Position numbers and translations under genes: made by a program. DNA of 64,000 nucleotides from Escherichia coli (GTDB lineage: Bacteria; Pseudomonadota; Gammaproteobacteria; Enterobacterales; Enterobacteriaceae), in the NCBI RefSeq assembly GCF_003334305.1, contig NZ_QOWS01000007.1; one strand, written 5' to 3'. The stretch's first letter is position 1; every line of letters begins with the position of its first letter. Of this stretch, positions 37,005 to 38,377 are shown piece after piece. The notes under the pieces are model-generated. The model did no database searches. It had not been told where the DNA came from and saw only the letters and a program-made list of their open reading frames with translations.

Positions 37005-37212
37005 ACCATACTCCTCTGGACTGAAACATCCTGATTAATTTTCGCTACTACATAGCCTAACAGATAGATCATCACTTTTCCGGCAACAATCGACCGCATC
37101 ATGGCTAACTGGAATTTTTAATTCATGGCAATTAGCGGCAATGGAATATAAAATTCACTCGCGTGTCTCTCATATTGCCTGTTGTCGCCACTATTTCATC
37201 GCGAGGAAAGAT

Positions 37213-38061
37213 ATGAACGGCTTACTTCGTATCCGTCAGCGTTACCAGGGGCTTGCCCAGAGTGATAAAAAACTGGCGGATTATCTGCTGCTACAACCTG
37301 ATACGGCGCGCCATTTAAGCTCTCAGCAACTGGCCAACGAAGCCGGAGTCAGTCAGTCCAGCGTCGTGAAGTTCGCGCAAAAACTCGGCTATAAAGGTTT
37401 TCCGGCGCTTAAGTTGGCGTTGAGTGAAGCGCTGGCAAGCCAGCCGGAATCGCCCTCCGTGCCCATTCATAACCAAATCCGCGGTGATGATCCGTTACGG
37501 CTGGTCGGCGAAAAACTGATTAAAGAAAATACTGCCGCTATGTACGCAACGCTAAACGTTAATAGTGAAGAGAAACTGCATGAATGCGTAACAATGTTGC
37601 GCTCTGCGCGGCGGATAATTCTGACCGGTATTGGCGCTTCGGGTCTGGTGGCGCAAAACTTTGCCTGGAAGCTGATGAAGATTGGCTTCAATGCTGCCGC
37701 AGTGCGCGATATGCATGCGCTACTCGCAACAGTACAGGCGTCGTCCCCTGACGATCTGTTATTAGCCATTTCCTACACCGGTGTACGACGCGAGTTAAAC
37801 CTGGCGGCAGATGAGATGCTGCGAGTGGGCGGAAAAGTGCTGGCGATTACCGGCTTTACTCCGAATGCCCTGCAACAGCGTGCTTCTCATTGCCTGTATA
37901 CCATTGCCGAAGAACAAGCGACAAACAGCGCTTCAATCTCTGCTTGTCACGCTCAGGGAATGTTAACGGATTTGCTGTTCATTGCGCTGATTCAGCAGGA
38001 TCTGGAACTGGCACCAGAACGTATTCGTCATAGTGAAGCGCTGGTGAAAAAACTGGTCTGA
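37213..38061 (+). CDS. yfhH: RpiR/MurR-family transcriptional regulator (HTH + SIS domain) YfhH, 282 aa
   Basis: ORF track 37141..38061; start set to ATG 37213 after GAGGAAAG RBS. Confidence 0.8.
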   Translation: MNGLLRIRQRYQGLAQSDKKLADYLLLQPDTARHLSSQQLANEAGVSQSSVVKFAQKLGYKGFPALKLALSEALASQPESPSVPIHNQIRGDDPLRLVGEKLIKENTAAMYATLNVNSEEKLHECVTMLRSARRIILTGIGASGLVAQNFAWKLMKIGFNAAAVRDMHALLATVQASSPDDLLLAISYTGVRRELNLAADEMLRVGGKVLAITGFTPNALQQRASHCLYTIAEEQATNSASISACHAQGMLTDLLFIALIQQDLELAPERIRHSEALVKKLV

Positions 38062-38116
38062 GTAAAGAATGCGCGTATAATGCCCGCCCGGTTTGTGTTG
38101 TTTTGAGAGTTTCCTT

Positions 38117-38377
38117 ATGGCGTTGTTAATCACTAAAAAATGCATCAATTGTGATATGTGTGAACCCGAATGCCCGAATGAGGCGATTTCAATGGGAGAT
38201 CATATCTACGAGATTAACAGCGATAAGTGTACCGAATGCGTAGGGCACTACGAGACACCAACCTGCCAGAAGGTGTGCCCGATCCCCAATACTATTGTGA
38301 AAGATCCGGCGCATGTCGAGACAGAAGAACAGTTGTGGGATAAATTTGTGCTGATGCACCACGCGGATAAAATTTAA
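38117..38377 (+). CDS. yfhL: 4Fe-4S cluster ferredoxin YfhL, 86 aa
   Basis: ORF track 38093..38377; start set to ATG 38117 ([20 protein letters not shown]...); two CxxCxxCxxxCP motifs. Confidence 0.85.

Follow-up and report, generated by a model that had tools for sequence, protein, structure and literature searches.

We analyzed the region around yfhH and yfhL in a 64-kb stretch of the Escherichia coli chromosome (the window; coordinates are positions in this stretch, and those of genes are from the RefSeq annotation, converted to window coordinates). The order of genes in this part of the window is purL(-), mltF(+), tadA(-), pgpC, also called yfhB(-), yfhH(+), yfhL(+), shoB(-), the small RNA (sRNA) gene ohsC(+), acpS, pdxJ, recO, era, and rnc. 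The sequence from 36000 to 39500 was found in all of the complete E. coli genomes (5426/5426), and its identity to thousands of them is 99-100%. The segment of interest extends from 37005, the first base past the pgpC start codon, to 38377, the final base of the yfhL stop codon. An earlier note on this segment described yfhH as a gene for an RpiR/SIS regulator that is divergent from pgpC and has a small 2[4Fe-4S] ferredoxin gene, yfhL, as its co-directional neighbor. The RefSeq coordinates and strands, and the domains of YfhH described below, agree with this description. As the earlier note also said, no sugar-phosphate gene adjoins yfhH in E. coli, and the E. coli context by itself does not reveal the target of YfhH. 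Based on the loci of related species, we think it likely that YfhH is an orphaned MurR-type repressor, that its operon was deleted in Escherichia, and that yfhL is independent of it.

YfhH has an HTH_6 domain (PF01418, residues 1-77, E = 4.7e-30) and a SIS domain (PF01380, residues 128-258, E = 3.2e-32). By this domain criterion, it is a transcription factor of the RpiR/MurR family. It matches the NCBIfam equivalog NF008590 with 572 bits (cut-off 355). Against the MurR model NF012026 it scores 171 bits, not reaching the cut-off of 408 for that equivalog, and it is 34% identical to E. coli MurR (YfeT). That is, YfhH is by sequence a paralog of MurR, not MurR proper. The recognition helix SQSSvVKFAQKLG is common to YfhH, MurR, and their nearest relatives, and is not present in more distant RpiR proteins. 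Other regulators of this family, including HexR, RpiR/AlsR, and NanR from Vibrio vulnificus (PDB 4IVN), are like YfhH in the HTH_6+SIS fold, the phosphate-binding serines, and AT-rich palindromic operators. However, they are more distant from YfhH (E of 1e-16 or weaker to solved structures) and their recognition helices differ.

Most of the residues with which MurR contacts its ligand are conserved in YfhH. MurR is a tetramer that binds two neighboring repeats in the murQ-murR spacer and is released by N-acetylmuramic acid 6-phosphate (MurNAc-6-P). It contacts MurNAc-6-P directly via G145, S146, K159, H171, S190, Y191, S192, and K195, with K159 reading the lactyl group (PMC9177960). The equivalents in YfhH are A142, S143, K156, H168, S187, Y188, T/S189, and R192, and these are constant over 79 orthologs. 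Six of the eight contacts (S146, K159, H171, S190, Y191, and S192) are identical or conservatively replaced, with serine or threonine in place of S192 (threonine in E. coli). The other two are changed alike in all 79 orthologs: G145, a backbone contact, is alanine, and K195 is arginine, a conservative replacement. Residue 241 of YfhH (window 37933-37935) is equivalent to S244 of MurR, which contacts the lactyl group; it is serine, as in MurR, in the six Escherichia loci and alanine in the other 73 orthologs. The closest relatives of YfhH outside the ortholog cluster (40-42% identity) also adjoin MurQ-like genes. Because the contact residues are kept and the nearest relatives are beside MurQ-like genes, our best guess is that the ligand of YfhH is MurNAc-6-P or a very similar lactyl-ether sugar phosphate.

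We compared the E. coli locus to the yfhH loci of 80 species of Enterobacteriaceae (YfhH 75-99% identical), mapping the E. coli neighbors onto each. The locus from Salmonella enterica (L088; surveyed loci have L numbers) was fetched separately and is outside the species counts. The order purL-mltF-tadA-pgpC...yfhH...yfhL-acpS-pdxJ was constant across the 80 species. In Escherichia, pgpC and yfhH are separated by 208 bp; in most Citrobacter, Enterobacter, Lelliottia, Leclercia, Kosakonia, and Phytobacter, the gap is ~2.4 kb. The added length in these relatives accommodates two genes that are transcribed divergently from yfhH. The product of one, murQ2, is a MurNAc-6-P etherase (MurQ; TIGR00274, 414 bits, cut-off 302). 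The product of the other, PTS2, is an EIIBC protein of the phosphotransferase system (PTS) for which MurP is the best model, yet its score is 335 bits and the equivalog cut-off is 516. Both genes were intact in 40 of the 80 species. In three species murQ2 was present and the PTS region was truncated by the edge of the locus, seven kept murQ2 alone, 29 had neither gene, and the state of one was unknown. Both are intact at the orthologous position in S. enterica; in Salmonella the etherase and PTS genes are immediately upstream of yfhH (locus tag STM2572; PMC7527575). In contrast, murQ2-PTS2 was found at the yfhH locus in none of the 5426 complete E. coli genomes.

The layout of murQ2-PTS2 and yfhH in these other genera matches that of the E. 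coli murR <-> murQ-murP-pbp4b locus (yfeT/yfeU/yfeV), in which the regulator is also divergent from the etherase and PTS genes. MurQ2 is 54% identical to MurQ and PTS2 is 39% identical to MurP. Judged by these identities and that of YfhH to MurR, the three proteins are old paralogs of those encoded by murQ, murP, and murR. The two loci differ in what follows the PTS gene: the ancestral yfh-type operon continues into pgpC-tadA and not pbp4b. In all 39 of the species with an intact PTS2 that were measured, 3 nt separate the stop codon of PTS2 from the start codon of pgpC, and tadA is ~57 nt further. These junctions indicate that the ancestral transcript controlled by YfhH probably ran into pgpC-tadA. 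That is, pgpC was probably already within the YfhH-controlled transcript in the ancestral arrangement. The two loci also differ in that yfhH of E. coli has no adjacent etherase-PTS operon (it was deleted) and is hence an orphan.

We found that Escherichia retains the end of the missing operon. Positions 37005-37091 correspond, in alignments with Citrobacter, Enterobacter, and Salmonella, to the final ~110 bp of PTS2, with one internal deletion of 22 bp. By blastn the identity is 91-96% over the best stretch, positions 56-110 of the reference from locus L010. The residual peptide of this relic, SIVAGKVMIYLLGYVVA, resembles TIVAGKVLFYLLGYLVA of PTS2. The boundaries of the deletion are identical in all Escherichia species. 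The alignments indicate that a deletion of ~2.2 kb in the ancestor of Escherichia removed murQ2 and most of PTS2, and that what it left is ~87 bp of the PTS2 3' end, two operator-like palindromes, and yfhH.

The operon has decayed differently in other lineages. In Pluralibacter and Trabulsiella, the tail of PTS2 and a piece of the murQ2 5' end remain. In Salmonella arizonae, PTS2 is broken by several deletions. PTS2 alone was lost in Citrobacter sedlakii, Lelliottia WAP21, Huaxiibacter, and Superficieibacter. The differing deletion boundaries indicate at least five independent decays of murQ2-PTS2. Orthologs of MurR (at least 60% identity) were found only in Escherichia, Citrobacter sp. Awk 4, C. 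sedlakii, some Salmonella, Klebsiella aerogenes, and Serratia ficaria. In three of these MurR-bearing lineages, Escherichia, Citrobacter sp. Awk 4 (L027), and C. sedlakii (L013), murQ2 or PTS2 has decayed. This handful of cases suggests that the yfh-type operon was lost through displacement by a second MurNAc locus.

The PTS2 relic is invariant within Escherichia and is retained even in lineages with other deletions. Because it has been kept despite differing deletions, the relic probably carries a functional element of pgpC, for example its ribosome-binding site and perhaps a promoter. We matched sigma-E and sigma-70 hexamers to the relic by hand and found nothing convincing; we claim no promoter there. 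In Enterobacter sp. Bisph1, murQ2-PTS2 is replaced by an insert (L071, 4627-5871) that encodes a major facilitator superfamily (MFS) transporter and is unrelated cargo. In Kosakonia quasisacchari (L065, 4734-6032) an equal-size insert is in place of murQ2-PTS2, and a GDSL-lipase-like secreted protein, also unrelated cargo, is encoded between yfhH and yfhL. Both flanks of yfhH are insertion hot spots.

The spacer between the relic and yfhH contains two candidate operators for YfhH, box 1 and box 2 (Table 1). No other sequence in the 64-kb window matches the motif exactly, and matches with one or two mismatches in the window were at or below the number expected by chance. Species with the operon have the same two boxes, located between murQ2 and yfhH. 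In 69 of the 80 species, the 135 nt upstream of yfhH contain at least two GAAT-N5-ATTC boxes; the background is 0.07 per 135 nt. Within Escherichia, both boxes are invariant and the 14 nt between them vary more than any other part of the spacer. The E. coli murQ-murR spacer contains the sequences GGAATCATATATCC and GGAATCATTGAGTC, which have GGAAT as left half-site, as do the boxes upstream of yfhH, and which are likewise 32 bp apart. The right half-sites differ: ATTC in the YfhH boxes versus ATCC and AGTC in the murQ-murR spacer. By analogy to tetrameric MurR, which binds two repeats in that spacer, we infer that YfhH binds the two GAAT-N5-ATTC boxes.

Two divergent promoters are predicted in the same spacer, one for yfhH and one leftward, and box 2 overlaps the -10 hexamers of both. 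The leftward promoter would be the former promoter of murQ2, and its -35 region (TCTCAT) does not vary within Escherichia. Both the boxes and this predicted promoter are 106-170 nt upstream of pgpC in E. coli. The pgpC-yfhH spacer is bound by sigma-E and sigma-H holoenzymes in genomic SELEX (systematic evolution of ligands by exponential enrichment; PMC5493296).

Table 1. Genes and sequence features around yfhH, in window coordinates.
Feature	Position	Strand	Evidence
mltF	34255-35811	+	RefSeq annotation
tadA	35808-36311	-	RefSeq annotation
pgpC (yfhB), phosphatidylglycerophosphatase C	36369-37004	-	RefSeq annotation; TIGR01545, 447 bits
Relic of the 3' end of PTS2 (MurP-like EIIBC), including the pgpC ribosome-binding site	37005-37091 (~87 bp)	-	Alignment, blastn
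Box 1, TGGAATTTTTAATTCA, core GAAT-N5-ATTC, candidate YfhH operator	37110-37125	.	Palindrome, conservation
Predicted yfhH promoter, ATGGCA-18-TAAAAT	37125-37154	+	Consensus scan only
Box 2, TGGAATATAAAATTCA, candidate YfhH operator, 32 bp from box 1	37142-37157	.	Palindrome, conservation
Predicted leftward promoter, ATGAGA-17-TATATT, putative former murQ2 promoter, now facing pgpC-tadA	37145-37173	-	Consensus scan
yfhH, MurR-paralogous HTH_6+SIS regulator, 282 aa	37213-38061	+	RefSeq annotation, domain and model matches
yfhL -10 TATAAT (38076-38081), then G+C-rich GCCCGCCC	38076-38089	+	Conservation, cited promoter activity
yfhL, Alvin-type very-low-potential 2[4Fe-4S] ferredoxin, 86 aa	38117-38377	+	RefSeq annotation, model and structure match
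13-bp A+U-rich hairpin over the yfhL stop codon, possible weak terminator	38374-38404	+	Fold -13.5 kcal/mol, z = -2.1
shoB toxin gene	38571-38651	-	RefSeq annotation
ohsC antitoxin sRNA	38974-39050	+	Rfam scan

Our preferred notion is that YfhH would be a repressor of the MurR type with a phosphosugar, most likely MurNAc-6-P, as its signal. Its ancestral target would have been the divergent genes murQ2 and then PTS2, with a transcript running straight into pgpC-tadA. The deletion in Escherichia left YfhH with both boxes but without murQ2-PTS2. Because the boxes overlap the -10 elements predicted for both the yfhH promoter and the leftward one, YfhH of E. coli may now regulate its own synthesis and modulate the transcription that enters pgpC-tadA, and MurNAc-6-P would cause its release. 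That YfhH regulates pgpC-tadA in E. coli is, on these sequence grounds, a reasonable hypothesis. At most, yfhL would get some read-through transcription from yfhH.

We found that yfhL has the conserved features of an independent gene. The yfhH-yfhL spacer is 55 nt in E. coli. We determined the spacing and examined the yfhL leader in the 78 surveyed species that have both genes. The genes are 46-62 nt apart in 66 of these species, 85-181 nt apart in five, and 0.9-3.3 kb apart in seven. In S. enterica the distance is 3.25 kb, and genes on the other strand intervene. In the K. oxytoca group and S. enterica, the genes between yfhH and yfhL encode a ketopantoate-reductase-like oxidoreductase and an MFS transporter (opposite strand) and a LysR regulator. 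This three-gene block (L056, 6888-10066; L088, 5888-9065) is also present in L075 and L080; the oxidoreductase is like 2-dehydropantoate reductase and the MFS transporter is of the lactate/oxalate type. The end of the LysR gene in K. oxytoca resembles the 3' end of yfhH, indicating that the yfhL promoter region was carried along with yfhL.

A TATAAT hexamer is located at -40 to -44 from the yfhL ATG (mostly -41/-42) in 74 of the 78 species, whatever lies upstream. The leader, GCGTATAATGCCCGCCC(G/T)GTTTGTGTTGTTT..TGAGA.TTTCCT.ATG, is nearly invariant, also in 74 of the 78 species. It is kept where the upstream DNA is unrelated to yfhH (L047, L056, L058, L059, L075, L076, L080, and L081). The 5' region of E. 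coli yfhL has promoter activity, the genomic context of the YfhL ferredoxin family is variable across Proteobacteria, and the Pseudomonas aeruginosa ferredoxin gene is monocistronic (Elsen et al., PMC2984482). In addition, yfhL without yfhH is among the genes induced in urinary-tract infection. With a conserved internal -10 and leader, reported promoter activity, and separation of the genes in several species, yfhH and yfhL do not qualify as a single transcription unit. Since it has a conserved promoter and leader of its own, we regard yfhL as a gene in its own right, placed beside yfhH by nothing more than regional synteny. The adjacency is genuine, but we read it as a by-product of gene loss and not as a regulatory unit. 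The earlier note had framed the two genes as a pair, which implied the ferredoxin as the candidate regulated neighbor of yfhH, and this part of it was not supported: yfhL has its own -10 and leader, the genes separate, and the likely target was the deleted murQ2-PTS2. That note had named independent transcription and a lack of co-conservation as findings that would speak against a pair, and this is largely what the leader and the separated species indicate.

The yfhL leader (38076-38116; TATAAT, GCCCGCCC, and GGTTTGTGTTGTTTTGAGAGTTTCCTT) has tighter cross-genus conservation than the synonymous sites of the flanking genes. The G+C-rich stretch right after the -10 recalls promoters that are under growth-rate or stringent control. 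We found no RNA structure in the leader (z = 0.3-0.5). An Rfam scan of 36000-39500 found only the ohsC sRNA and no riboswitch or leader family at yfhL. The palindromic sequence AAAATGCATCAA at 38137-38148, in the first codons of yfhL, is the only NsrR-like half-site that we found and has two mismatches, and a secondary source lists a possible NsrR site at yfhH in E. coli (PMC7527575). Such matches occur at a background of ~1 per kb, and we rejected this one as evidence.

The product of yfhL is an Alvin-type (Allochromatium vinosum-type) 2[4Fe-4S] ferredoxin. It matches the model for YfhL-family dicluster ferredoxins (NF033683) with 136 bits (cut-off 86), and residues 2-86 match the crystallized E. 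coli protein 2ZVS_A (E = 4.5e-58). The translation has the cluster motifs C9-C12-C15-C19P and C37-C40-C49-C53P. Among the Alvin-type ferredoxins, which include P. aeruginosa Fdx1 (2FGO), A. vinosum Fd (1BLU), and YfhL (2ZVS), YfhL has CX2CX2CX3CP and CX2CX8CX3CP with the insertion. Its redox potentials are very low, -675 and -418 mV, and what has been demonstrated for it is these low potentials and the donation of electrons to heterologous nitrogenase components only (PMC12047441). In E. coli yfhL is non-essential, unlike fdx1 of P. aeruginosa (PMC2984482). In E. coli LH50-c, a prophage with DinI-like, tail-fibre, and YadA-like genes (L087, 5058-9160) is inside the 5' part of yfhL (~38164), directly after yfhH, and yfhL is listed as an integration site of Stx2b prophages (PMC12029490). 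In about 161 of the 5426 E. coli genomes, there are two or more match places.

The regulator itself has been strictly retained. The ratio of nonsynonymous to synonymous substitution rates (dN/dS) for yfhH is 0.017 in Escherichia and 0.029 in Klebsiella/Raoultella, which have lost the operon, and 0.031 in both Citrobacter and Enterobacter, which have kept it. In the same genomes, yfhL, pgpC, and acpS have similar values. The yfhH reading frame is intact in all 79 full-length orthologs, and yfhH-yfhL is present at 80% coverage or more in all 5426 complete E. coli genomes. The strong purifying selection and universal presence indicate that YfhH has a continuing function. Transcription factors orphaned by the loss of their operons are a general phenomenon, in which, as here, the regulator and operator are retained with a relic of the lost gene at the junction. 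yfhH differs in that the target has decayed repeatedly (at least five times) with the regulator always intact and under strong purifying selection.

Several points weigh against our interpretation. Autoregulation alone fails to explain the strong selection on yfhH after loss of the operon. The score of PTS2 is below the MurP cut-off, so the sugar that it transports is not certain. The boxes upstream of yfhH are 16-nt palindromes identified by conservation alone, and those in the murQ-murR spacer, read here from sequence, are putative counterparts of the mapped MurR repeats. For yfhL, a sigma-70 scan called no promoter; the -35 is weak, which is why the scan would have missed it. Neither scanning nor folding found a terminator between yfhH and yfhL, and so some read-through from yfhH into yfhL is likely. 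Finally, yfhH was listed as an uncharacterized transcription factor of E. coli K-12 in both 2016 and 2022 (PMC4797297, PMC9308461).

The lack of a terminator, the co-directional genes, and the 55-nt spacer would fit a functional operon or regulatory pair, in which YfhH controls the ferredoxin and so links a sugar-phosphate signal to low-potential electron transfer. Direct adjacency (46-62 nt) in 66 of 78 species and the presence of both genes in every complete E. coli genome fit as well. We give this little credence. The candidate boxes are upstream of yfhH and there are none upstream of yfhL, and the TATAAT and leader of yfhL persist with foreign DNA or a LysR gene upstream. The two genes are separated by 0.9-3.3 kb with opposite-strand genes in S. 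enterica, the K. oxytoca group, and others. Their adjacency is no stronger than that of any other gene of the syntenic block, and the YfhL family is found in variable contexts across Proteobacteria and is monocistronic where tested (PMC2984482). It is also conceivable that yfhH of E. coli no longer has a function and is turning into a pseudogene. The operon that it belonged with has been lost, and the gene is non-essential and has served as a neutral marker site (PMC2909356). This we consider extremely improbable, and it is already contradicted by the selection data: the dN/dS of yfhH in Escherichia is as low as that of neighboring housekeeping genes, no full-length ortholog has a broken reading frame, no complete E. 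coli genome lacks the gene, and the boxes are conserved.

Two other possibilities give YfhH a present-day target. In one, YfhH cross-regulates murR-murQ-murP-pbp4b as a second sensor of MurNAc-6-P alongside MurR. The two proteins have nearly identical recognition helices and common ligand-contact residues, and both sets of operators have the GGAAT left half-site and 32-bp spacing. Nonetheless, the right half-sites are not the same, repression of murQP is ascribed to MurR alone (PMC9177960), and Klebsiella oxytoca and Raoultella keep yfhH and both boxes although they yielded no MurR at 60% identity or above. We regard cross-regulation as quite unlikely. In the other, YfhH has been kept in Escherichia, and independently in Klebsiella/Raoultella, as a controller of pgpC-tadA acting at the former murQ2 promoter. 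This would extend the interpretation of YfhH as an orphaned repressor and does not exclude it. It is consistent with the ancestral junctions (pgpC 3 nt past the PTS2 stop codon in 39 of 39 species, with tadA next), the position of the boxes and leftward promoter upstream of pgpC in E. coli, the purifying selection on boxes and yfhH in lineages without murQ2, and the binding of sigma-E and sigma-H holoenzymes to the spacer. In contrast, the highly conserved PTS2 relic may hold a promoter of pgpC itself, which would make the upstream promoter dispensable, and Pluralibacter, Trabulsiella, and Yokenella retain yfhH with one box or none. We view such control as the reason for retention of yfhH as possible, though doubtful. 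A more extensive version, in which a rewired YfhH in Escherichia and Klebsiella conveys the MurNAc-6-P signal to the pgpC-tadA promoter and, by read-through, to yfhL, seems unlikely.

The flanks of the locus have additional features. mltF and tadA are convergent and their 3' ends overlap by 4 bp (35808-35811). The ~700-bp segment with shoB and ohsC (38378-39070), between yfhL and acpS, is found in Escherichia only. In many other genera, including much of Citrobacter and Enterobacter, the tblastn matches to the convergent yfhL and acpS end 2-3 nt apart. One surveyed contig, CACSKA010000009.1 (L022), is titled Chryseobacterium sp. 18061 and has a typical Enterobacteriaceae purL-mltF-tadA-pgpC-yfhH-yfhL-acpS block. 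It parallels that of Citrobacter sp. 18056 (L021), with equal gap lengths and similar identities, and the assembly is probably mislabelled or contaminated.

We found no description of a link between yfhH and murQ in the literature that we searched, and a possible relation of yfhH to PgpC has only been speculated upon, from adjacency (PMC6055005). Our results give YfhH assignments that can be tested: MurNAc-6-P as ligand, the boxes at 37110-37157 as operators, and murQ2-PTS2(-pgpC-tadA) as ancestral regulon. The system is intact in tractable organisms, including Salmonella, Citrobacter, and Enterobacter. The odd neighborhood of yfhH in the model organism is a deletion scar, which calls for caution in inferring function from its adjacency to yfhL. 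This is a useful functional lead for a y-gene; neither the mechanism nor the kind of system is new. The target operon was lost repeatedly while the regulator was strictly retained, which makes it a small, clean case of how orphaned regulators persist. If YfhH does control pgpC-tadA, then a signal from cell-wall turnover would be coupled to a phospholipid phosphatase and an essential tRNA deaminase. If the rewired version that includes read-through to yfhL is true, then peptidoglycan recycling would be linked to membrane phospholipid synthesis, tRNA editing, and electron supply.

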